Below are positions 21,272 through 60,106 of a stretch of DNA of 64,000 nt, one piece after another. Position 1 is the stretch's first letter. Every line of letters begins with the position of its first letter. The notes beneath the pieces are model-generated. The model did no database searches, was not told the DNA's origin, and saw only the letters and a program-made list of their open reading frames with translations. A program made the position numbers and the translations under genes. Source of the stretch: a virus (Duplodnaviria > Caudoviricetes); the IMG/VR virus record IMGVR_UViG_3300037361_000044, positions 1 to 64,000 of that record, one strand, 5' to 3'.

Positions 21272-23089
21272 ATGACTGATGTCGATGAAGTTCCGTCCTC
21301 CTTGCTGTTCGCCGAGCTGCGGAAGGTGGCGGCATCGCGCGCACGCATGACTGTTCCGCAGTCCAGGTCCGGTCGGAGGTCGATGAGCGTCGACACCATG
21401 CTCAAAAAGGACCGCGCCGGGTCCTTATGGAAGGACCACCTTCCTGGTGGCTTGGCGGATAGGAAAACACCCGCGGACTTTCCTTCTGACAAGCTGCGTG
21501 AAGGCGTGAGTGTGGAGCGTGAACACGCCAGCGACCCCGCAATCCAAGCTGAGATCGCCATGGATCACATCACAGAGGACCCGAACTACTACCCCAAGCT
21601 CAAGCGCATGGAGGCCGGGGAGAAGCAAGCAGGTTTGATGGACGTCCTGAAGACGCCCATTCCTGGCACCAAGGACTGGTTCGTCAACACGGGCAAGGCT
21701 GGGTTGCAAGGAGCCAAGGCCATCACTGGCAAAGCTCCCATCGTACCGGCTATGCGCGCGGCTAACTCCGTCGTCCCTAGGGCTTCCGGTGCGATGCGTA
21801 CAGCGGGGCATGCCGCGCTGCGTGGCGGCAACAGCATCTCTGAGGCTGAGATGCAGCGGTTAGGCTTTGGCGATTTGCTGAAGTCAGGCGCCGCCAGGCC
21901 TGAGGCCACCCTCAAGGACTTTCAGGAGAAGCTCAAGCCGGGTGACATCCTGCTCACCCGTGCCGTGCACCAGTCATTGATGTCCAAGATCATCTCGGGC
22001 GTGCAACACAGTGACTTCGGACATTCCGCCCTCTACATCGGCAATGGCCGCGTCATCGATACACGCAATCGTGGCGAGGGCGTAATACAGACGAGCTTGA
22101 GCGAGGTCTACAAGAAGTGGGGTGGTGGTGGTAGAGACATCCGTGCGTATGCCCCCAGCGCCACGGCTGAGCAGAGAGACCAAGCGATAGCCCGCGCCAA
22201 GGAGCTTTTGGGCACACCCTACAATACCTTGGGTGCCGTGCGCTTGCTGCTACCTGCCGCCAAGAACAAAGGCATAGAACCGGGGAAACCCAAGAAGGTC
22301 ATTTGCTCCGAGCTGATTGCCAGGGCGTACCCGGACTTACCCTTTGCCGCTGGCAAGAACCGCGCCCATGTGCTGCCCGTGGACATTGCCAAGTCGCCAC
22401 TCACCGCAAGGGTGGCCGAAGTGAATCACGGGCCAGCCAAGGTTGCCTTCAAGCTGCAGGGGCAGACCTCGGTACAGGGGATTCCTATTGCAATTGAGAA
22501 TAGGAAGGTCTCCGTACGGAAAGGGACTGACCCCGACGGTACTCCGTGGCGCACCGTGTACAAGATCCCTTACGGGTACATCAAAGGTACCGAAGGAAAT
22601 GATGGTGAGGAGATCGACGCGTACGTGGGGCCGCACAAGGACGCTACCGAGGTCTACGTCATCCATCAGCACAAGATCGATGGCAAAGGCTACGACGAAG
22701 ACAAGGTGATGTTTGGATTCCTCTCTGAGGCGGATGCACGCAAGGCGTACCTCGATCACTACAACAAGGTCGGGCCCAAGCTGCTGGGACCCATCTCTAC
22801 CATCAAGATGGATGACCTAAAGAAGCGTCTTGAACAGCGGCGCAGGCACACCAAGCTCTCCTACGTCACCGGCGGCTCTGGTTCAGGAATCACCGGTAAC
22901 CGTATGGCCATGTTAGACATGGACGAGAAGCCGGAGCGCACGAAGCCAGGCGATGTACCCTCCATGGACGGCACCAACCCTGGTACGGCTGGTATTGTTA
23001 GGCGTGAAGCCGGGCCTGAGATGGCCACGGTGCTACCAACCAACGGCGCCCTGGCCAACAGCCAGACCGGTGCAACGACGAGGCTCTGA
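21272..23089 (+). CDS. Multidomain (polyvalent) protein: DUF5661-like + permuted papain-like NlpC/P60 (YiiX-like) + inorganic-pyrophosphatase-like domain
   Basis: GVSVEREH..EIAMDHITEDPNYYPKL; PGDILL..GHSALYIG..GTPYN..CSELIA; IAIEN..YGYIKGTEGNDGEEIDAYVGP..DEDKVMFGF. Confidence 0.8.
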   Translation: MTDVDEVPSSLLFAELRKVAASRARMTVPQSRSGRRSMSVDTMLKKDRAGSLWKDHLPGGLADRKTPADFPSDKLREGVSVEREHASDPAIQAEIAMDHITEDPNYYPKLKRMEAGEKQAGLMDVLKTPIPGTKDWFVNTGKAGLQGAKAITGKAPIVPAMRAANSVVPRASGAMRTAGHAALRGGNSISEAEMQRLGFGDLLKSGAARPEATLKDFQEKLKPGDILLTRAVHQSLMSKIISGVQHSDFGHSALYIGNGRVIDTRNRGEGVIQTSLSEVYKKWGGGGRDIRAYAPSATAEQRDQAIARAKELLGTPYNTLGAVRLLLPAAKNKGIEPGKPKKVICSELIARAYPDLPFAAGKNRAHVLPVDIAKSPLTARVAEVNHGPAKVAFKLQGQTSVQGIPIAIENRKVSVRKGTDPDGTPWRTVYKIPYGYIKGTEGNDGEEIDAYVGPHKDATEVYVIHQHKIDGKGYDEDKVMFGFLSEADARKAYLDHYNKVGPKLLGPISTIKMDDLKKRLEQRRRHTKLSYVTGGSGSGITGNRMAMLDMDEKPERTKPGDVPSMDGTNPGTAGIVRREAGPEMATVLPTNGALANSQTGATTRL

Positions 23090-37449: not shown

Positions 37450-40400
37450 CGCAGCGGACCTCACCACCATCGCAGTCTTCGATCATCCGAGCACAGTCCC
37501 TTGCTCCATGCCGGGTATGTTGCAGGATGCCTACTCACAGTCGATGGCGGTGGACCTACGTGCGCCGAAGGTACCGGATTTCACGGGTGTCTTTGAAGAA
37601 AGGCACCCGGAGATGAGAAAGAGCGAAGAATGAATCAACGATACAGAGGACTGCTATGCCTACTACTACTTGCGATGTCGGTGGCAGTAAAGATGCTGCG
37701 CGAGTTGCTGATGAGCCTGGACGCTTCTCCTACTCCCGCCTAGTTGCGGCAAGGGACCATGGTCGGCAGCTCCAGGAGAGGGCAGACCGTGCGCGTAAGG
37801 CCGGGGACTACCGTAAAGCCCTTGCCAGGTACAGCGAGCTATTACCTGTGGTTTCCTTCTTGGAGGAGGCAGGGCAAACTGGATTACCACCAGGGATGTC
37901 CATGCAGCTGCTCCAACGTGGGATTGAGCTGGCTGAAGAGCTGGCCGCTGCCCCTTACTTAGGGGAATGACGGGTAGGGCAAAGCCCCACTACACAGACG
38001 TGTTGCTTCCTACTGCCGTGCGCGTTTGGTACCGGCTCCACGCAGATGGCTGCAGAGACTTGCACCAGGTGTCTTGCGCGCATGACAGCGTAGGGGCAGC
38101 ACCTGAGTGGTGGGAAGAGGGAGATCTGGAAACTGCGGTAGCCTTGAACAGGCTGACCTGCCGCGTGAAGGTGGGCGGGTTCGAGGTGCATCACCCTTGG
38201 TTGCGCTGGGCGCTGCGCAACGGCATAGCACCTGGGCAGGCTTTCTTAGTGGGTATACCGGAGCCTATCTACAGCGGCGACGGGGAGGACTACGATGAGG
38301 AATGGGAGTACGTAGTGCTTGAGCGGGCTCCCTCAAACAGCGCAGCGATACAGCGTAGGTGGGAAGTGTTCTCTCATCGACTGGCCATGCATCGAGCACT
38401 GGCGGCGGCCTCCTACTTCAGGGGCATTCATCTGGTTCAAGCGGACACTGGGGCCATGTACTTGAGACACACGAACTATCGGCCTTCCTCCGACACCTAC
38501 GGTTTCCCACGTGGTGTACTTCTCAGTCTGTGTACGAGTAGACGAGAGCACATCGATTACTTGGGCTATGCGGTGTCGGACGGCTATCAGCTGGCTTCAG
38601 GCAGGGATGATAGGGGCGGCACAGACACAGCGATGGCTCGGTTGATTGAGGTGGCTTGCGAGCGCTACCCAGCACTGAGCCCACAAGTGATCCAAAGCAT
38701 GAGGGTAAGACATTGAACGCATCGAATGCAGCTCGTGTACGCGTGCTACAGGCGGCCATCGCTTGGTGGAAGGGGTTTCGGCCTCTTTCTTGGTCAGAGG
38801 CAGACCACCTGTGCAACCCAGCCATCAACCAGCTAAGTCCGTTGGGTACGGACAAGACCTTGGCGCGTGCCGTGGCCCGCCTGGTCAAAGAAACGGCACA
38901 GCTGGACGACGCCACGCCACTAATACAAGACCTCTACGATCTGGCACAGGGCAAGAAGATCGACCGCTTCTCTGTGCTACGTCGAGCCGAGGCCTTTCTC
39001 GGCAAACGGGAGGTGCAGGATGACCCGAGGCCTGTTGCACGTGAACGCAGAGGAGCCCTCGGACGTATCACTGGCCTTGCTGGTAGAGGATGAGATAGTA
39101 GAGCTTCAGCTACTACAATCCTTTGCTGCGGACCTGGCGCTGCACGAGAAGCTGAGCCCACATGACGCCTTGATAGAAACCGTGAGGTTTGTGAATGACT
39201 TTGAAAAGAAGGCTAAGGCAGAAACGTAAACGCGCACTACGTAAACTGCGCAAGCGCAGAGCGCTAGTGCAGCGGGAACAGCACCTAGCTCGAGAGACAA
39301 GGATCGCCAGCAGCATGGAGCAGCAGTTGATGGCTGTTCTAGTCATGAAGGCGCAAGCTGCGGCTGCTGAGAAGTTCCGGCAGTCCATGGCGGGTAGGTC
39401 CGTAACGGGCAGATCTATGGGTAAGTCCATGAACTTCGGGCTGCACCTACCGGCAAACAGTCCTTTGGGTACCGAGGAGGCTGAGGAGCTGCTTGCTACA
39501 TGGCTAGGTGCGTTCCCGGAATTAGGTGGGTATCTAAAGGACCCTGCCGCAGCCACCGTAAAGTACGGGCAGGCGGATTGGTCTGCGCTGGAGACTCGCG
39601 TCTTGGATTACGCCAAAAGGGATGCTGCGAGCACGGAAAGGTTGTACAAGCAGACCAATGAAGAGCTGCAAGGCAAAGGCGGGAAAGCACAAGAAGCAGG
39701 GAGACCGTCCTTGTCGGCAGCCATGGCGTGGGCGTACAGCGATATGGCAGGCAAGGAAGTGCGAGCAGGAGATTAGCGAGTACATTCAACGCAAGAACAG
39801 ACCGGCTGCTCCAGCCTTTGAAAAGCTGGCCTTGGCGATGGCCGAGGCGCGTATGGTGCAAGAAATACAACAGACAGAGGATGCGGAATTCCTCAATACT
39901 CTCGCACAGGACTTAGCCAATGTCGTACTTGAATAGCCCAAAAGACCCAATACGCGACGTGCTCAAGGCTATGACAGGAAAAGCTCCACCAGCCTTCGTG
40001 CGCGGCTACACCTGTCACAACCTGCCAGACACCAAGTGGGATGCGTTGCAAAGCTGGGCTGTGAACAATTGCAAACCGTCCTACTTGACGGGCATAGGCC
40101 TTATTGAGGCTGCGCACCAGCAGGTGGATGAGGCTGTCAGTAACGGCAACATCCCGCCACCCGGCTACCCCTGCGGGAACCGCGTGGACTTTGTACTGAA
40201 GCTATTCAGGGCGTTGTCGAAACGGCACGGGGACCTGCTGGTGGAGCTGCGACAGGCCACTATAGAGTTGGCGTACAAGCAGAAGGAGGCAGCAGCCTGT
40301 CCGGTGGAAACCCATACCCGCACCAGGGGTTCGAAAAAGAAGTGGAGGATGCGCGTGTCCTCAACAAGGTCATGAAGGAGCCGCTCGATGAACGAACCGA

Positions 40401-41913
40401 GAGTGAAGAATGTCGACCTGTTCTTGATGTGCCTATCCGAGGCAGCAAGTAACAAAGAGCTCCTGGCTGAGTTCGATAGACTCACTGGCTACAACATATC
40501 GCTCAGTGGCCCTGCCATCGTACAGGAGATCGATAAAGCCACTGGGCAACTCGAGGCAGGGGCCAAGGTGTTCTACGAGTTCGTAATGGAAAAGATCTAC
40601 TTGCCCGTGCAGGCGAAGATGGACGAAAGCGAAAAGAAGCAATGAAAGAGACCTTCTACGTGACCACGTTCTGCAACCACGCGCACCGGTTGGAAGACGG
40701 CAAGCCCATAGGCCACGAGTGCTATGTATTGCCCACTGCTGCCCTTCACGCTGAGAGGGATGGGAAGCTAGGCCTGGCTGTGGAGCTGCTCGGCAAGTGG
40801 AAGAGGCGGCGAGTACATCGTGGTCTGAAGAGTTGTGCACCCACCTGAGTACACGCCCTACAGCCGCCAGTTGATCTCGCATGAGCTGGCAGAGCTGCAG
40901 GAAGCCGAGGCAATGGAGCAGGACTTCGTGGACTATATGGAGCGCAAACGGCGCCCTAAAGTCACTGACCCTTTTGTCGGGCAGCTGTGGCGGCCACAGC
41001 CCATGATCATGAGCCAACACGACTACGATGACATCGTGGCGTGGGGTGAATCAATAGAGAAAGAGGAAGCGAGGAAAGAGAAAATGCGCATAGGGAAGTT
41101 CCTTATCATGCAGCAGCCAGTAGTTGGCACTGCACGACCCGTGGGCTCGAACCCGGATGAAACACGCACTTTGCAGCCGTTTGGGTCACGTGCTGCCAGA
41201 AGACTTGACGCAAAGATGCTTCGAGCGAAGGCAAAAAAGGGGAAATGTCGATGAACAGAGAAGAAGCCATAGTTTGGATGCTTCGGCATCCTAAAGAGAT
41301 TCTGCGCGGGGAATACAGGCGTGTCGACGGTAAGCGCCGCCTGGACTACTGGATGTTCTTCAATGGTCACATCGTGACAAGCCATACAGACGCCGGGGTC
41401 TACAAGGCAAGCGATGCCTGGCTTCGCCGAGAGCTTGTCAGCTTTTCCGTGCACCACGTGACGTTGACCGAGTGGGCTGGGGCTGCATGCACGGTCACAG
41501 ACTGCATAGGACCGTTCCTTCGTCTACCAAGGGACTTCATTGGTAGACGGGTACGCGTGGCTGCCACCCCAGTGACCGTCATGTCTGGCAAAGACGCCAT
41601 GATTTGGATGCTCAAGCATACTGGCTGGATGGTGCGCTCAATGAGTCAAGCACATGGCAAGTCCAACTACGATGAGTACTTCTTCAGCAACAAGCATCAA
41701 GGCTTTAGAGGGAGGAACGGGGGCAGGGCCCGCAGCTACGCAGTGGACGCCGCCTCTCTGATGACCCAGGGCTTCACCGTCAGTGACACTTGGAAGGATG
41801 TGCTTACTACAACGTCGGACGCGTCCGGGCCGTACGTGCGGCTACCTGCGTACTACGAAGAGCAGGAGATGAGGGTACACGTGACCCTCGTGCAGGGACA
41901 AGAGGCAGCATGA
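37439..41913 (+). other. Run of small tiled hypothetical genes (37439-37633, 37656-37970, 37967-38716, ~38713-39093, 39020-39229, 39195-39776, ~39703-39936, 39920-40375, 40388-40645, 40642-40848, 40835-41254, 41245-41913)
   Basis: Co-directional ORFs with RBSs and stop/start overlaps; no recognisable full-length family. Confidence 0.6.
39195..39776 (+). CDS. Small protein carrying shuffled family A DNA polymerase motif fragments
   Basis: VTGRS, GKSMNFG, EAEELLATWLGAFPELGGYL, ADWSALETRVL, YAKRDAASTERLY. Confidence 0.6.
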   Translation: MTLKRRLRQKRKRALRKLRKRRALVQREQHLARETRIASSMEQQLMAVLVMKAQAAAAEKFRQSMAGRSVTGRSMGKSMNFGLHLPANSPLGTEEAEELLATWLGAFPELGGYLKDPAAATVKYGQADWSALETRVLDYAKRDAASTERLYKQTNEELQGKGGKAQEAGRPSLSAAMAWAYSDMAGKEVRAGD

Positions 41914-42926
41914 TAACCAGCATAAAAGTCGGGATGCACGTACGTGTGGTGATACGGGGCACGTACCGTGAGCAGGATTGGCACCACGCTGCGGTGGACG
42001 CGCTGCACGGCGTCACAGGTACTGTTTCGGTGATAGAGCCGGACAAGCTCATGTGTCTGGTGTCCTTCGACGCGCCCGTGGAGAAGTGGGCCATGCGCAG
42101 TTCTGATCCAGACCCCGAGGCAAACCAGCTCACCTGCTTCCATTTTCACTTTGGAGAGCTCGAAGAGCTTCTCGAGAAGCGCGGGGCAATTACGTGCCGT
42201 ACGGATGCAAGCAAGCCCAACAACAGCAATGCCGGTGAACTGCATGCCGTGGAGTTCTCGGACAGGTTACCGGGTAGCGTGGACCTGCTGTACCGGGAGG
42301 TGGCTGCTGGACCTCCTGCGGGGTTCTGCGTGGAAAAAGCACCACACGCAACGTGTCCTGCGTGCGAAATGGAGGCGGAGCTCGGCACAGAAGATGTCCC
42401 ACATCCGATAGACCCGCGGGTTCACAGCTGCGCATTGGACAAGCAGGGCACTACTAGGTACGTAGCTGGCTTCTTCTTCGACCCCACCTTCAGGTACGTG
42501 GCCTTGGTGCTGAAGAAGCGGCCTGACTGGCAGGCTGGCAAATGGAACGCTGTTGGCGGACATGTGGAGGATGGTGAACCGGCAGGCGCAGCCATGGCCA
42601 GGGAGTTCCATGAGGAGGCAGGCATCCTTCACTATCGTTGGCGGCACTTTGCCACCGTAGTGGCAGCTGGTGCTGAATCTCAGCTGGATGCCTACTTTGC
42701 TGTTGGCGCAGAAGATGAGTACATCCGCGTCAAGACCGACGAGCAAGTGGATTGGGTGTCAATAGAAGGTGTACGCGATGGTGAATGGCCCGTGGTTACC
42801 AACACGAGATGGCTGCTGGAGCTGGCTCTATCGATCTGTCGGGGCGTAGACCCCTGCCAGTCCTACCTTATTCAAGAGGAGACAAAAAGAGATGTCGAAA
42901 GCACACCTGTCACGCAGCCACAATGA
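41910..42926 (+). CDS. Nudix hydrolase with N-terminal SH3-like extension
   Basis: GGHVEDGEPAGAAMAREFHEEAGI fits GX5EX7REUXEEXGU; KRPDWQAGKWN. Confidence 0.88.
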   Translation: MITSIKVGMHVRVVIRGTYREQDWHHAAVDALHGVTGTVSVIEPDKLMCLVSFDAPVEKWAMRSSDPDPEANQLTCFHFHFGELEELLEKRGAITCRTDASKPNNSNAGELHAVEFSDRLPGSVDLLYREVAAGPPAGFCVEKAPHATCPACEMEAELGTEDVPHPIDPRVHSCALDKQGTTRYVAGFFFDPTFRYVALVLKKRPDWQAGKWNAVGGHVEDGEPAGAAMAREFHEEAGILHYRWRHFATVVAAGAESQLDAYFAVGAEDEYIRVKTDEQVDWVSIEGVRDGEWPVVTNTRWLLELALSICRGVDPCQSYLIQEETKRDVESTPVTQPQ

Positions 42927-45900
42927 GAAGGTGACGCTGGCCCTGGACATCTGTGAGTTTCTCAACGAGCTGGTGAACTTGGACCGCAATGCTGTGCAGC
43001 AGCTCGTGGCCCAGCGCGTCCCTTGTAACGAGGGGATAGTGAACCATCCCACCGCGCAGGTGCCTATGGACGAGGAGTTGTCGCCTTGTATTGGGCTGCT
43101 GGGAGTCCTCAACGGCCTGGTCGGTGGGGGCTACATCGTGGCCGTGTACGACAATGACAACGGTCAGTTGCAGTACTTCTTGGCCCGGCTGGGCAATGAG
43201 GAAAAATAGACGATGCCAAAAGGGCGGAGGCAGAAAGCTAAGCACTGGAAGAACTTCGCCGACAAGCGTAAGTTTGCATTCTTTGCCCGTACCAAAGAGG
43301 CACGGGACCTATCAACGCAGGAGAAACCAGATGACGACCAAGATAAGCTTCGAACCGTGGACGACAGAGATCCCTGACAGCAAGCTGGTGGAGGACCCTG
43401 AGGCCACCATCTACGAACAAGACCCTCGTGTGATTACCAACCACCAACCTGGGCAGTTGCCGGTGCCACCCAATCCCCCACCGCCGGTGGGCTGGGTGTA
43501 CTGGAAGAACCAGCCAGTATCGCACGCAGCAGCGTCATTGGCCAACAGCATGCTGCACGATCCAGGCATGTACCCCATGGGCACCTTCGTACGTATCTCA
43601 GTTGGCGGTGAAATCATTGGCGCGCGTGTGGAGTGGCATGACTTCCAAGGGGCGACTGGGAAGAGGGGCTGCTTCCGTGGTGTGAACCTGCTGAAGAAGG
43701 TGCCTGATGGCGTGTGACCACTGCAAGACCGCTGAGCGTGAATGCGATTGCGGTGAAGGTCCTTGTCCTGACTGCTACGTCTCCATCTTCGGGGAGGAAG
43801 GACCTACCCCGGAGCAGCGGGCAGAGATCGAAGCCATCAACAAGGATGTGGATGAGTTCCTGGACGCCAACCCAGGGATTGAGCTGCTGCTGAACCAGCC
43901 TGGCGTGTATGTCAGCAGCCACATCATGGAGAGCGTACCTGGCATCCTGGAGGTCACACCTATGCAGTACAGCTTCGAGTCCCCAGTTGAGCACTGGAGC
44001 TCGAGCACACCGAACGTGCAGAACGTGCAGAACGTGCAGAACCCCCAAGGAACACCCACTGGTGAGTCTGAGCTGGTTATGGCCGACGTCTACGGCTCTG
44101 ACGTGCGCCTGCTGCGCAACTGGGACAAGTCCGTGAAAGCAGACGCATCACCATTTGCCGGTCTTGACCTGCCACTACATGACCGCCTCATCCTGCTGAT
44201 ACCCAACCTAGGTGCGTACCCGTCAAGTCCCGCGTTCAAGGAGGCAGTGGAGAGAGAAGCAGGGCCCTGCGATATCAAAGTCATCGGCACTGTTGTGCAG
44301 ATCACACGGCTCACGCCTAATCCAGACGGTACGCACCTGGAGATGCAGATCGAGTATTAGGGAGACTGCAGATGGAACATTTCGCACAGAATGCGCTGAA
44401 TCACCTCAAGAAGCATCCAGCAGACACATTGGATGGCCGCTCGCTAACCATCCTCGGCGAGGAGCTGCAGAAGGGCATCAAAGAGAACTTGTGGATCATA
44501 GGGGTGCTTGAGGAGCACGCTCCCGACCTTGATGTTCTGCAGGAATTCAAAGACGAGCTGAAAGCCATGGCCGAAGCCAAAGACAACATCGACCTGAACT
44601 TGAAGAGGAGAGCTTCTGAGTATGAAAAGAACAGCAGCACAACGCCGGAAGGATAAGGCTCGCAACAAGATACGTCGCCAGCACTATGTAGTGTTGAGTC
44701 CACCACGTGGTCAGCCCAAGTACCAAGCGATACTCGATGACGCGGCGCACTTTGGCCCAGCTGGCTTTCTGAAGGTGGCTGGCTTGGTGCCTTCGGCCAC
44801 TGGCCGCATACCAATGCACAAGAGCTTGGACGAGTACTTCGAAGACATGGATAAGGAGCTGTCCAAGTTGCCTGAGTGTGAGCGCACTAAGGAGAACCAA
44901 GCTGTGCTCCTTGCAAACATAATTCGGGATGGTCTTGGCTTGCCGCCAGTACCGCTGCATAGGGAAAAGCCAGGTGGGTAAGTACATGAAGTCCAGCCCG
45001 CCTGCAGATCCTGGGACAATACGGATATCGTTCCAAATCCCGGAGGACCAGTGGGCTGAGTTCGAGAAGCTTACGGTCAAGCAGGCTGTCGCACCTTCAA
45101 GTTCGTACCTAGATACCAGCAGAACTACGATTGGGAGGACTGCAAAGCCACCGGCTACTACTCAGGCAACCCAGTATGGCTGAGTACTTGGCTCATGATC
45201 ATCACGGACAACACGCTACACGTGCTCATCAACGGCGTCATTCTGTACTACATCAAGTAAGCCATGAACCCATTCGTAAGACCCAGCAAGAAAGCCCCAG
45301 GCAGGCCACGCAGTGTAGTGGGTGCCTCAACTCCCGATGCTCAACGCGCGGTGCATCCAGCAACTAGGGAGCAGGATGCGAGGAACCTCGACAAAGTACA
45401 GCAGGCTAGGGCTTTGAAGCCACCAACCCGAAAGGTGTCCCCAAGATGAGTAGTAAAGCCGACCTGGTTGTGCTGCCGGGTCTTGTACTACCGTGGCGCG
45501 TAGCCAAGGGGTACTGGCAGCTGATAAGGAATGGGGTGTCTGTGAGTGTGCATCCGTACACCAGCTCATTCTCTGTGCAGCTTGCGCCCAACTGGCGTGA
45601 GGCAAAGAAGAGCGGCCGTTACACGTGCACACAGCATGCCGTAGATGGGTTGTTCGAATACTTGGTGGATAGCTGGCTGCTGGACGTGGTCATGGCTGAC
45701 GAGATAGATGGAACACAAGATGGACGAAAAAAAACACGAAGCATGATAGGCGATTACATCAAGAGCCTCCCTGAACCCAGTGAAGGCATGAAGCGCATGG
45801 CTGGAGTAGGCGCCGAGCACATACGTGGCAGGCTTGGGCTACCTCCAAAGAATGCGAGGTACGTGTTGGTACGCTTCTTCAAGCCCTTCATCCAGGCTAA

Positions 45901-46560
45901 GTGGTTTGGCATGGGCGGCAGGGAGGTAGGAGTAGCCTACTTTGGGGACCTTGAAGAGAAGTGGACTGTTGCCCTTTACGACATCCCTACGACAGTTGAC
46001 CCAGCTGCCGTTCTGCTGTTGCGCTTTGAACCACTGCAAGATGGGCCAGCCTTCAATGCTGGTCGCTGCTTCACGTGGACTGTGGGCATCGAAGACGTGG
46101 CAATTTGTCAGGTGCTATCGACGCGGGTGATGGAGGTGTTCAAAGCCTCTGACCCGTTCACCAGCAAGCGCATCGTTGGCTTCTCCAAGCTGGCGCCACA
46201 GGAGCCGTTGCCGCCCAGCGTAGGAGAAGTGGCGGTCAAGGTACTTGGAGAAGCCTTGGCACCAGTGCCTGAGTATCAGACTGACGCCTGGGGTGATGCA
46301 CTCGCAGCGCAGAGTACATGAAGCACGGCGTCATCCTCATCTCTGTACGTGAGCCTGGACCTAAGGATGACCCCAAGAACCCGTACCGTACAGGCGGGTG
46401 GGTTGTGGTCAAGGATGAAGCCATCTCAAGGTTGGTACAACCACAAGAACTAGCCGATGACATCCTGAGGAAGCGCGCGGCATTCGTGCCCGATGACGCC
46501 TGGGACATGCTTGGCTTGCCGCGAGAGCAGAAGAAAGAAGAGAATGATGCCAACAGTTGA
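42892..46560 (+). other. Run of hypothetical genes (42892-43209, 43331-43717, 43707-44360, 44372-44656, 44622-44981, 44986-45183, 45264-45449, 45446-46321, 46318-46560)
   Basis: Tiled co-directional ORFs with RBSs. Confidence 0.6.
44012..44042 (+). repeat. 9 bp tandem repeat (GAACGTGCA)x3.4 encoding NVQNVQNVQN
   Basis: Read directly from the sequence. Confidence 0.9.
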
Positions 46561-47368
46561 AGTATACCGAGCAACCAAGAAGAACGACATCTGTGAAGGA
46601 TGCGGTGCATGCTGTGCCCCTGGTATCCTGGGGCAAAGGACTGGGCCCTACTTGGAGATTACACCCGATGACCTCAAGGATGACTTCAAGAGCAAGAAGA
46701 AGCTGGTGGTCAAGGACCAGATGTTCGGGGAGGGTGGCAAGCTATTCCTCCCAGTGATCCGCAGCAACCGTAACGACTTCACCCAATGCGAGCACCTAAT
46801 TGGCATGGTGCTGGGTGGAGGCCGTTGTAGCAGTTATGACACCCGGCCCACAGCTTGTCGTATCTTCGAACCAGGTGGGCACATGTGCCAGACGCTGAGA
46901 CAGGCATGGCTGGTACACCAGGACAAAGTGGTGTGGGAGAGGCTAGCTCATCCCGAGTACAGCCATGATGAGGCAGTCTACGCGGTGGTGGCCAACAGCA
47001 ACTGCCTAAACGTCTACTCCAAGGACCACCACATCCTCGAGTCCTTAGGCACAGGCCCCGATTATGTCCACCTGCGCAGGGTACGGGATGAGGAGCAACG
47101 CGCAAAGGAGACCAAGGTTGAGTACGCAACCCTGGACCTGCCCAAAGACACCGTGTCCCTGGTTGAGCGCAAGCGTATGTACCGCCCGGTGGGGGACTTC
47201 CGGAAGGCCCACATTGCGCACGAGGGTAAGGGCATAGACCCCTCCACGAGCTTTGCTGCCCAGGCTGAACGCAATGTACTGGCTACCCGCCGCCGCAAGG
47301 TGGCAGCCGCCAAGACACGCGCAGCTGAGAGCCCACGACCAAAACGGACAAAAACCAAGACCCGGTGA
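46544..47368 (+). CDS. YkgJ-family (CxxCxxCC) Zn/Fe-S cluster protein
   Basis: CEGCGACC ... CEHL ... CSSYDTRPTACRIF. Confidence 0.8.
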   Translation: MMPTVEVYRATKKNDICEGCGACCAPGILGQRTGPYLEITPDDLKDDFKSKKKLVVKDQMFGEGGKLFLPVIRSNRNDFTQCEHLIGMVLGGGRCSSYDTRPTACRIFEPGGHMCQTLRQAWLVHQDKVVWERLAHPEYSHDEAVYAVVANSNCLNVYSKDHHILESLGTGPDYVHLRRVRDEEQRAKETKVEYATLDLPKDTVSLVERKRMYRPVGDFRKAHIAHEGKGIDPSTSFAAQAERNVLATRRRKVAAAKTRAAESPRPKRTKTKTR

Positions 47369-58424: not shown

Positions 58425-58964
58425 ATGGCTAAGAAGCGCGCACGTGAGGAGCTTTGGGGTTTGACACCTAGTTCTGCCTTTAGTTTGATGCTAATGCTTA
58501 GAGGACCTCGTAGTGGCGCCGATAAGGCCACGCTGACAGAGTTGCATGTGGCTAAGTACATAGTACCGACAGCAAAAGACACGCTGTGGGAGCCCCGCTA
58601 TCGCCTAACCAGTGCGGGTAGGGCTATTTCTAAGGAGTTCAAAAGGAGAGATGCGCAAGAGCGCGTAGACGCAAGGCTTAGGTATCAAGAGCTGCAGAGA
58701 TTAGCGGAGTTGGCGCAAGAACTACGCAGCGTCACCGTAGACGATGAGGAAGACGAGGAAGACTTAGCGGATGAGGGTGAGTATGATCCGGAAGCCGCTA
58801 ACGACTACTACGACGCGGACTGCGGCCGCTGGGTACCTGACGGCCACGAAGTCTGTGACGCTTGCGCGGGCACAGGCACCGTGACATACGACCACGACCT
58901 GGAGGTGGTTTGCATGGAGTGCGATGGGGAAGGCTATATGCCACGTAGAATGGTTGATATATGA
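58425..58964 (+). CDS. Protein with winged-helix-like N-terminus, acidic linker and DnaJ-type Zn finger
   Basis: YRLTSAGR; CDACAGTG...CMECDGEG. Confidence 0.6.
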   Translation: MAKKRAREELWGLTPSSAFSLMLMLRGPRSGADKATLTELHVAKYIVPTAKDTLWEPRYRLTSAGRAISKEFKRRDAQERVDARLRYQELQRLAELAQELRSVTVDDEEDEEDLADEGEYDPEAANDYYDADCGRWVPDGHEVCDACAGTGTVTYDHDLEVVCMECDGEGYMPRRMVDI

Positions 58965-60106
58965 GCTACGATCCAGAAAAGTGGGACGGAGAACGCGCGC
59001 TCCCAAAGTTGTATTCACGCACGGCCTCGGGAGCCATCAACACCTGGGAGGTGTGGCTGGCTAAGGCTGGAGGCGTCGTCGTACGCTGGGGCCAGATGGA
59101 TGGGGCTCTGCAGACGACGGTCTTTCAATGTGAAAGAAAGAATATCGGTAGGGCCAATGCCACCTCGATGGTGGAGCAGGCCAGGCGCGAGGCGATCTCC
59201 AAGTGGAAGAAGCAGCTCAAGAAGAAGTACTACATGAGCTTGGCGGACGCTGCGGGTCCTGCAACCCAGTCCAGGTTGAGGCCCATGCTGGCGAAGAAGC
59301 TGGAGGACAGAGCAGGTAAGTTCAAGTTCCCTGTTGATGTTCAGCCCAAGCTTGATGGTGTTCGCTGCCTGGCGCAGCGCATTGATGGCAGGGTGCAGCT
59401 CTTCAGTCGGGGCGGTGATCCGTACGACGTAGGGCACATCAGCACCGCTCTGGAGCACAATCTGGTGGATGACTACGTGGTTCTCGATGGTGAGATCTAC
59501 AGCCACGGCATGAGCCTGCAGAACATCATCTCTTTGGTGAAGCGGCCACAGGAGGCCAGCCTCAAGCTGACGTACAACGTATACGATATCGCCAGCACCG
59601 AGCAGGAGGAGCCATGGCACACACGCCGGGATTCCTTAGACAGCTGGTTCGAGTGGGCATGTAGTGAAGGCTTGCTGCCGTGCGTAAAGGGGGTGCACAC
59701 CCGCTCCGCCAACAGCATGGAGGAGCTGAAGGTCGCCCATGACTACTACGTGGAGGAGGGTTACGAGGGCGCCATCATTCGCTTGCTTGATGGGGTCTAC
59801 CGCTTTGGCTACCGCTCGAGCGACCTGTTGAAGATGAAAGAGTTCGACGACATGGAGTTCGAGCTCGTTGGCTGGGATGTGGGCAAGGGCAAGTTTGCGA
59901 ATGTCCCCATCTTCAGGTGTCGGGTGCCCTTCAACGGCAAGCTGTTCGATGTGACGCCTCGAGGTACAGCGGAGGTGCGCCGAGAACTGCTAACGCAAGC
60001 CAAGTCGATGATGGGGAAAAAGTACACTGTGCGGTACTTCGGGCTCACGGACGAGGGAGTACCTCGCTTCCCAGCGGGCATTGGAGTCCGCGAGAAGGGC
60101 ATGTAA
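58961..60106 (+). CDS. lig: ATP-dependent DNA ligase
   Basis: PMLA, QPKLDGVR (motif I), LDGEIY, YDI, EGAIIR, LLKMK, PRFP. Confidence 0.95.
   Translation: MSYDPEKWDGERALPKLYSRTASGAINTWEVWLAKAGGVVVRWGQMDGALQTTVFQCERKNIGRANATSMVEQARREAISKWKKQLKKKYYMSLADAAGPATQSRLRPMLAKKLEDRAGKFKFPVDVQPKLDGVRCLAQRIDGRVQLFSRGGDPYDVGHISTALEHNLVDDYVVLDGEIYSHGMSLQNIISLVKRPQEASLKLTYNVYDIASTEQEEPWHTRRDSLDSWFEWACSEGLLPCVKGVHTRSANSMEELKVAHDYYVEEGYEGAIIRLLDGVYRFGYRSSDLLKMKEFDDMEFELVGWDVGKGKFANVPIFRCRVPFNGKLFDVTPRGTAEVRRELLTQAKSMMGKKYTVRYFGLTDEGVPRFPAGIGVREKGM

Follow-up and report, generated by a model that had tools for sequence, protein, structure and literature searches.

This analysis concerned a small gene in a 64,000-nucleotide stretch of DNA from a tailed virus (Duplodnaviria; Caudoviricetes), referred to here as the window, which comprises the first 64 kb of the 190,298-bp IMG/VR virus record IMGVR_UViG_3300037361_000044 (genome G000). 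Comparative sequence data indicated that this open reading frame (ORF 39195-39776) is a real gene under selection, accessory and fast-evolving, and confined to one lineage of phages of the ~190-kb group. With a probability of about 0.5, its product can be read as an arginine-rich helix joined to a non-catalytic module, shrunken and permuted, that derives from the fingers/motif-A region of family A DNA polymerase (polA), i.e., a lineage-restricted accessory protein. An earlier note, made from the letters of the window, had described the gene as a patchwork of five shuffled polymerase snippets; the ORF and all five quoted strings are indeed present where it placed them. The features of the locus are collected in Table 1. 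The basic N-terminus (M-T-S-K-R-R-L-R-Q...) is common to all members of the family, indicating that 39195 is the true start of the gene and not a later methionine picked by the gene caller. The overlap with the upstream 69-aa ORF, which was also called in the contig bearing the homologue P0006, suggests translational coupling. A promoter/terminator scan and a tandem-repeat scan around the gene detected nothing above background.

Table 1. Coordinates of the gene at 39195-39776, its putative polymerase-like segments and its immediate surroundings (window numbering).
Feature	Position	Strand	Basis or remark
Upstream 69-aa ORF	39020..39229	+	overlaps the start of the 39195 gene by 35 nt; context only
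Shine-Dalgarno-like GAGG	39184..39187	+	7 nt ahead of ATG at 39195; read directly
ORF, 193 aa + stop	39195..39776	+	read from sequence; small family (P0002, P0003, P0005, P0006, P0007 and a divergent positional orthologue in G001)
Arg/Lys-rich N-terminal helix	39195..39392 (residues 1-66)	+	predicted by AlphaFold2; kept in all members
Lineage-specific insertion SMAGRSVTGRS	39384..39416 (about residues 64-74)	+	gapped in all five homologues aligned
Motif-B-like K-x-x-N-F-G and E-E-A-E..W..F-P helix	39411..39542 (residues 73-116)	+	hhalign, A1 profile against PDB, PHROG 17
Motif-A-like D-W-S-A-L-E-T-R-V-L	39561..39623 (residues 123-143)	+	hhalign, pol-domain HMM, Pfam on P0003
Exo-III-like Y-A-x-x-D-A-x-x-T-x-x-L-Y	39594..39680 (residues 134-162)	+	alternative reading, overlaps the motif A tail
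Second, degenerate motif-B-like segment	39696..39740 (residues 168-182)	+	within hhalign match 2, colinear after motif A

Homologues of the gene came to light with exhaustive and profile-based searches. A word-based protein search with the ORF returned only the ORF itself, DNA and tblastn searches of the phage collection found no relatives, and a related-locus search of viral contigs with the family was likewise empty. An exhaustive phmmer search of 1.84 billion representatives identified three small homologues (P0002, P0003 and P0005; E 1e-12 to 3.5e-5), to which a profile search added P0006 and P0007; the profiles used below were built from four family sequences (A1) and from the family of six (A2). 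P0007 comes from an independent contig of 189,951 bp on which the gene order matches (ThyX, RNase HII, this gene, NUDIX), P0006 (JGI contig) has the same immediate neighbours as the window ORF, and a 195,580-bp phage (G001) carries a more divergent copy in the same position (L016:1198-1800, minus strand). The search for similar genes in related genomes that the earlier note had proposed therefore ended with six homologues, two of them positional orthologues in other ~190-kb phages, and with dN/dS values of 0.23-0.40 (0.23 at a dS of 0.91 for P0007 against P0002; 0.35-0.40 against the window copy). The frame, described before as intact, is under selection at a dN/dS of 0.23, and a decaying pseudogene is ruled out by this value. 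An assembly chimera, which the earlier note had raised against its own reading, is ruled out by the recurrence of the gene in independent assemblies with conserved synteny.

The gene diverges rapidly, sharing 38% identity with its L003 orthologue compared with 50-86% for most neighbouring genes, and the family profile found no match in G002-G005. The syntenic slot of G002, between orthologues of both flanking genes (L034:3721-4011, minus strand), contains a short frame beginning M-H-S-S-E-R-R-R-L-R-K-Q-R-K-S-A-L-R, which looks like a remnant of the arginine-rich N-terminus of the family from which the polA-like part has been deleted.

The polymerase likeness was evaluated at the level of the family against an alignment of 19 diverse polA sequences, of which 10 belong to the phage's own clade and 9 come from elsewhere (the latter including Salmonella Pol I and phages of Clostridium, Listeria, Gordonia, Mycobacterium, Streptomyces and Vibrio). 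These diverse sequences were taken from the phage collection, a scan of the genome contigs for polA having yielded just 3 loci. Aligned with hhalign, A2 gave three matches to polA: residues 73-116 to motif B and the helix after it (Prob 63%, P 7e-5, score 41.3), residues 123-182 to the region from motif A through to motif B (Prob 37%, score 36.6), and residues 134-162 to Exo III (Prob 18.5%, score 32.7). For comparison, 200 column shuffles scored 14.3 on average (standard deviation, 2.5; maximum, 21.8), and the reversed alignment scored 17.2. The suspicion that the fragments might score no better than shuffled controls was thus not borne out, at 41, 37 and 33 against at most 21.8. When 30 window/L003 gene pairs were compared with polA in the same manner, the pair containing the ORF scored 39.3 and the best of its 29 neighbours 26.9. 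The same three matches were recovered with the non-clade polA alignment (motif B and helix, 48%, score 38.7; Exo III, 5%).

Searches with hidden Markov models (HMMs) pointed in the same direction. The polA HMM ranked the ORF third among the 1659 six-frame ORFs of the genome (E=0.006), the ranking was reproduced by an HMM lacking the phage's clade (E=0.12), and family members were on top with both exo-only and pol-only HMMs. Reversed decoys reached E-values of 0.07-0.76 at best across the four HMMs, indicating that the HMM E-values are sound, and none of 2000 shuffles matched the real score for five of the six members. All 55 matches of the A1 profile in the PDB were to Pol I (best E=0.004). 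Among Pfam families, DNA_pol_A was the top match for P0003 (E=0.011, 15.2 bits), whereas DNA_pol_A_exo1 was top for P0005 (E=0.048) and second for P0007 (E=0.02), at 13.9-15.1 bits. Conversely, when the family HMM was run against polAs, those from its own clade scored highest (up to 21 bits, per-comparison E=1.6e-8). Taken together, these comparisons put the similarity of the family to family A polymerase at about two-to-one odds of being real, and the ancestor of the module would most likely be the phage's own family A DNA polymerase. Family profiles combined with natural-decoy controls here turn a resemblance of motifs seen by eye into a statistical result.

The individual strings fared unequally. 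The assignment of the motif-B string and its following helix was supported by the first hhalign match (63%, score 41.3) and by F81, A96, W103 and P108, which are invariant in the family. The motif A string was moderately supported: it follows D-[WY]-x-x-L-E-x-R-[VI]-L in the family, with D128, L132, E133, R135 and L137 invariant, in agreement with polA motif A (D-Y-S-Q-I-E-L-R, with the catalytic Asp), and its hhalign probability was 37% against full polA and 58% against an A-B-helix block, with 9.7 bits for P0003 in the pol-domain HMM. The string previously assigned to Exo III is ambiguous; Y-A-K-R-D-A-A-S-T-E-R-L-Y can also be read as a helix continuing motif A (L-A-x-x-S-x-D in polA), with which it shares residues, and the G001 orthologue does not keep the YA..DA..T string. 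The resemblance of VTGRS to a Pol I motif appears to be due to chance, as this string sits in an insertion of 11-13 residues unique to the window ORF, where no tandem repeat was called. A second motif B, not among the strings quoted before, reads R-R-Q-A-K-x7-Y-G in P0002 and P0003 and has lost the K and G in the window ORF, while the first copy keeps K..N-F-G without Y-G (polA motif B, R-x3-K-x3-F-x3-Y-G). The description of a five-snippet patchwork therefore holds for polA-like segments in a non-native order and is overstated in number, with one snippet attributable to chance and another open to an alternative reading.

The order of the segments in the ORF is B-helix-A-(B′), compared with motif 2 (T-G-R), A, B and C in native polA; motif B before motif A, as the earlier note had it, was confirmed. 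Against a tandem A-B-helix template of our own construction, the family gave one colinear alignment across the junction (consensus 63-132, residues 73-143; score 67.5, Prob 96.5%), shuffles reaching at most 21.9. Consequently, one partial duplication followed by trimming, i.e., a circular permutation, would suffice to produce the B-helix-A arrangement, and the fragment-shuffling mechanism proposed earlier is not needed, the two best-supported segments forming a single block colinear with a tandem polA segment. The decayed second motif B is located after motif A, where the duplication model predicts it. The G001 copy has a different layout, with F-D-F-E-T-V-Y-G-G, then T-P-L-Q-K-M, then F-I, then D-Y-A-A-L-E-C-R-I-L-A. 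Unlike the helix-before-A layout elsewhere, this looks like the native succession of polA between motif 2 and motif A, with weak scores (2-5 bits), and the duplication model does not explain it.

The family alignment and the HMM alignments contain neither motif C (H-D-E, with the second catalytic Asp) nor the remaining palm with its beta-sheet, and they likewise lack the thumb, Exo I and Exo II. The gathering threshold of Pfam DNA_pol_A (34.3 bits) was not reached by any member, P0003 with its 15.2 bits being the best, nor was the cut-off of DNA_pol_A_exo1 (PF01612; 23.6 bits). Of the three motifs of this DEDDy 3′-5′ exonuclease family, namely Exo I (D-x-E), Exo II (N-x3-D) and Exo III (Y-x3-D), only an Exo-III-like Y-A-x-x-D-A is present. 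A pattern search of the six-frame ORFs of at least 60 aa in the genome found motif C only in the true polA. Lacking motif C, the remainder of the palm and the thumb, the product of the ORF cannot polymerise, in agreement with the earlier note. An intact family A polymerase of 684 aa that contains both the exonuclease and the polymerase domain is encoded on the minus strand at ~119.5-121.6 kb of the phage genome, so that the role of phage polymerase does not fall to the ORF. Its being part of a split polymerase is ruled out by this intact polA and by the fact that no other six-frame ORF of at least 60 aa in the genome supplies motif C. Comparison of the ORF with the resident polA, also proposed in the earlier note, revealed no DNA-level identity, and BLASTP gave only E-values of at least 0.15. 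A recent copy of the resident gene is ruled out by the lack of DNA-level or strong protein-level identity, as is a silent cassette for recombination into polA, for which the identity is far too low. Among the relatives, the polA match in G005 (L013:501-2762) contains two in-frame stops and that at L015:501-3383 spans ~2.9 kb for the 684-aa query, which suggests interrupted or insert-bearing polymerase genes.

The N-terminal part of the protein is distinct from the polymerase-like module. AlphaFold2 predicted a helix over residues 3-66, with a block-mean predicted local distance difference test (pLDDT) score of at least 85 for residues 1-40, and helices of low confidence beyond it. The net charge of residues 1-45 is +14 in the window ORF and +12 to +17 across members, and from this charge alone the Arg/Lys-rich helix is suggested to bind nucleic acid. 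It resembles the Arg/Lys-rich N-terminal helix of arginine-rich-motif proteins of the lambda N and HIV Rev/Tat type, and the G001 orthologue had a weak match to Pfam REV (E=0.23); the likeness is one of composition and predicted helix only, with no significant sequence match, and the C-terminal module is unrelated.

Other polA-like ORFs were found in the same genome. A 91-aa gene outside the window (G000 67,047-67,322, minus strand; L028:5051-5323:-) was flagged by the polA HMM with an E-value of 0.0009 among the 1659 ORFs and has homologues in G003 and G001. Its family is colinear with polA between motifs A and B, including R-x3-K-x7-Y-G (hhalign Prob 93%; 88% with the non-clade alignment), and obtains its highest scores with polAs from Clostridium and Listeria phages rather than with those from its own clade. 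A motif-C-like Y-F-H-D-E-V-I-V is also present in the G001 copy, and the family profile found no polA in the PDB. On these comparisons, the genome contains two polA-like mini-genes of independent derivation, the 91-aa gene being the second. This increases the prior probability that fragments of this kind are kept on purpose. The 91-aa gene is flanked by ORFs for a metallophosphatase and a ProQ-like protein; a fragmented second polymerase at 64.9-69.7 kb is ruled out by these flanking ORFs of unrelated families and by the absence of a second motif C. Within the window, ORF 43707-44360 (plus strand) matched polA marginally over motif 2 through motif A (hhalign P=0.0087, rank 2 of 30 behind ORF 39195-39776). 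It is fast-evolving (34% identity to its L003 orthologue) and contains an N-V-Q triplet repeat; with an HMM E-value of 5.2 and no Pfam polA match, it was set aside as only a marginal candidate for a further polA-like ORF.

The module of ORF 39195-39776 would thus comprise ~110 residues of a degenerate fingers/motif-A region in the order motif B, helix, motif A and decayed second motif B. Its simplest origin would be a partial tandem duplication of the A-B-helix segment of polA in an ancestor of the phage clade, after which the ends would have been trimmed, the segment shortened internally and the product fused to a basic helix of ~60 residues. The fingers subdomain of Pol I leaves the palm and returns to it, as known from established structures, which makes a joining of its end to its start plausible. 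The basic helix would seat the protein on DNA or RNA, and the fingers-like module, through its conserved motif A residues (Asp, Glu and Arg) and its motif B Phe, would engage the template, the primer end or a nucleotide. The conservation of these residues in a non-catalytic protein hints that the module still makes such contacts. Our best guess at the net action is that of a non-catalytic competitor or modulator of replication, acting at replication intermediates and not as part of the core replisome.

Several observations weigh against this interpretation. Each single test of polA ancestry is weak, and the hhalign probabilities are just 63% and 37%. The Pfam search proposed in the earlier note found no match for the window ORF by itself, and what it did find in P0003, P0005 and P0007 was weak and sub-threshold. 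The PDB signal of the A1 profile weakened to E=0.2 with the six-sequence A2, and sub-profiles of the two halves found either no polA or polA only amid noise. Motif A and Exo III are competing readings of the same residues. The tandem template was built after the data had been seen and mainly restates two of the hhalign matches. The predicted structure is of low confidence, both for the whole protein (pLDDT 63; predicted TM-score [pTM] 0.29) and for residues 62-193 (pLDDT 57, pTM 0.28). Foldseek against the PDB gave no usable match and no polymerase fold, and the ESM Atlas contained nothing at 0.9 or above and no polymerase fold, the only named cluster among the matches listed being DNA_pol_A_exo1 at 0.80, which is noise level.

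These weaknesses are compatible with a chance resemblance, in which an unrelated small basic regulator, such as a lambda N- or Rev-type arginine-rich-motif RNA binder, was picked because it looked polA-like. For the single sequence, the polymerase likeness barely exceeds chance: PHROG 17 (DNA polymerase) matched the window ORF at E=0.034, a PDB sequence search returned only noise, and unrelated families scored equally well (HTLV capsid, E=0.45; RHS_core, E=4e-4; Peptidase_S30, E=0.008), while neighbouring ORFs likewise collected Pfam matches at E 0.04-0.1. The loss of polA from the sub-profiles and the REV match of the G001 orthologue agree with such a regulator, as does the predicted succession of a long helix and low-confidence helices, which would be expected of disordered regulators. 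Against this stand the three hhalign matches, which lie above every shuffle, the reversed alignment and the 29 neighbouring families, and the third rank of the ORF among 1659 with well-calibrated E-values. In addition, different members, tools and regions converge on one superfamily, and the family's best scores fall on polAs from its own clade. We regard chance as unlikely on balance. Descent from the 3′-5′ exonuclease domain, as a colinear remnant from the helix after Exo II through Exo III with a coincidental likeness to motifs A and B, would account for the Pfam DNA_pol_A_exo1 matches (that of P0005 spanning 54 residues) and for the single colinear domain of P0006 in the exo-only HMM (14.5 bits, E=0.0013; 9.8 bits for the window ORF). 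The best Smith-Waterman alignment of the ORF to the phage's own polA also falls on the Exo III region. Yet hhalign places the Exo III match last of the three (18.5%; 5% with the non-clade alignment), the Exo I and Exo II motifs are missing, the YA..DA..T string is lost from the G001 orthologue, and a sub-profile of the C-terminal half found no exonuclease in the PDB, which leaves this descent improbable.

The earlier note had also suggested a possible decoy or mimic for host sensors of replication proteins. In such a reading, polymerase-like surfaces on the protein would divert a host immune sensor of this kind, or else poison a family A polymerase complex of the host or of a rival. An accessory status combined with rapid divergence is typical of host-interface genes, and the pattern of our gene would fit such a role, e.g., as a decoy or inhibitor. 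Its absence from some relatives, its much faster divergence than that of its neighbours, and the second polA-like mini-gene in the genome are circumstantial points in favour of a decoy. The residues that match are those of the active site, which are buried in the established structure of Pol I and are not surface epitopes, and with no fold predicted with confidence, surface mimicry cannot be shown; moreover, no defence-related context was found near the gene. A decoy is accordingly a very improbable explanation of the gene. A broader proposal, that the phage clade keeps at least two polA-fingers mini-genes as non-catalytic polymerase mimics, possibly jamming or diverting a host or rival polymerase, a step of nucleotide sensing or an immune sensor of replication proteins, is speculative and in our view quite unlikely; if true, it would represent a new class of phage counter-measure made from fragments of the phage's own replication enzyme.

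The reading as a permuted fingers/motif-A derivative can be placed beside several known systems. The closest known sequence family is that of the Pol I fingers and motif A (Klenow, Bst and Taq; PF00476), with profile-level likeness to motif B, its helix and motif A. Of D-Y-x-x-[IL]-E-x-R, the Asp, Glu and Arg are retained in the family, as is the motif B Phe. It differs in the size of the module (~110 residues versus ~300 for the polymerase domain), in the order of B-helix-A instead of A-B-helix, in the fusion of the ORF to an arginine-rich helix, and in being non-catalytic, without motif C, thumb, T-G-R motif, Exo I or Exo II. By its score, its order and its lack of motif C, the family falls outside PF00476. 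Diverged phage polA variants, divPolA1 and divPolA2, have been described in connection with polymerase swapping in Caudoviricetes (Virol J 2024, PMC11348598). Like the gene studied here, they are extra divergent polA-derived genes outside the replication module, some genomes having several paralogues, but they are predicted to keep an active palm catalytic domain (PMC11348598), whereas ORF 39195-39776 is permuted and has no palm catalytic core.

Tandem duplication followed by trimming is a general mechanism by which circularly permuted proteins arise. The B-helix-A-(B′) order corresponds to the middle of a duplicated A-B-helix unit; in contrast to the general scheme, no full-duplication intermediate was found, and the family shows decay of its second motif B and a shortening of internal segments. 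Limited searching of the literature found no precedent for a stand-alone permuted fingers derivative. If the ancestry holds, we know of no earlier case in which a derivative of the Pol I fingers/motif-A region stands alone, is circularly permuted and non-catalytic, and is maintained as a separate gene under selection. The gene would also indicate that phages can build small accessory proteins out of internal parts of a core replication enzyme, and would offer a compact natural test case for the capabilities of an O-helix/motif-A unit that has no palm. Considered jointly with the other polA-like mini-gene of the genome, it would point to a recurring process rather than a single accident.

Elsewhere in the window, several other large ORFs that were tested (up to 1195 aa) had no PHROG match. 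ORF 21272-23089 contains a domain common to minor head, endolysin-annotated and DarB-like PHROG families, and 41790-42926 encodes a NUDIX hydrolase that has a long extension at its N-terminus. A CxxCxxCC-domain protein is encoded at 46493-47368 and an ATP-dependent DNA ligase at 58961-60106.

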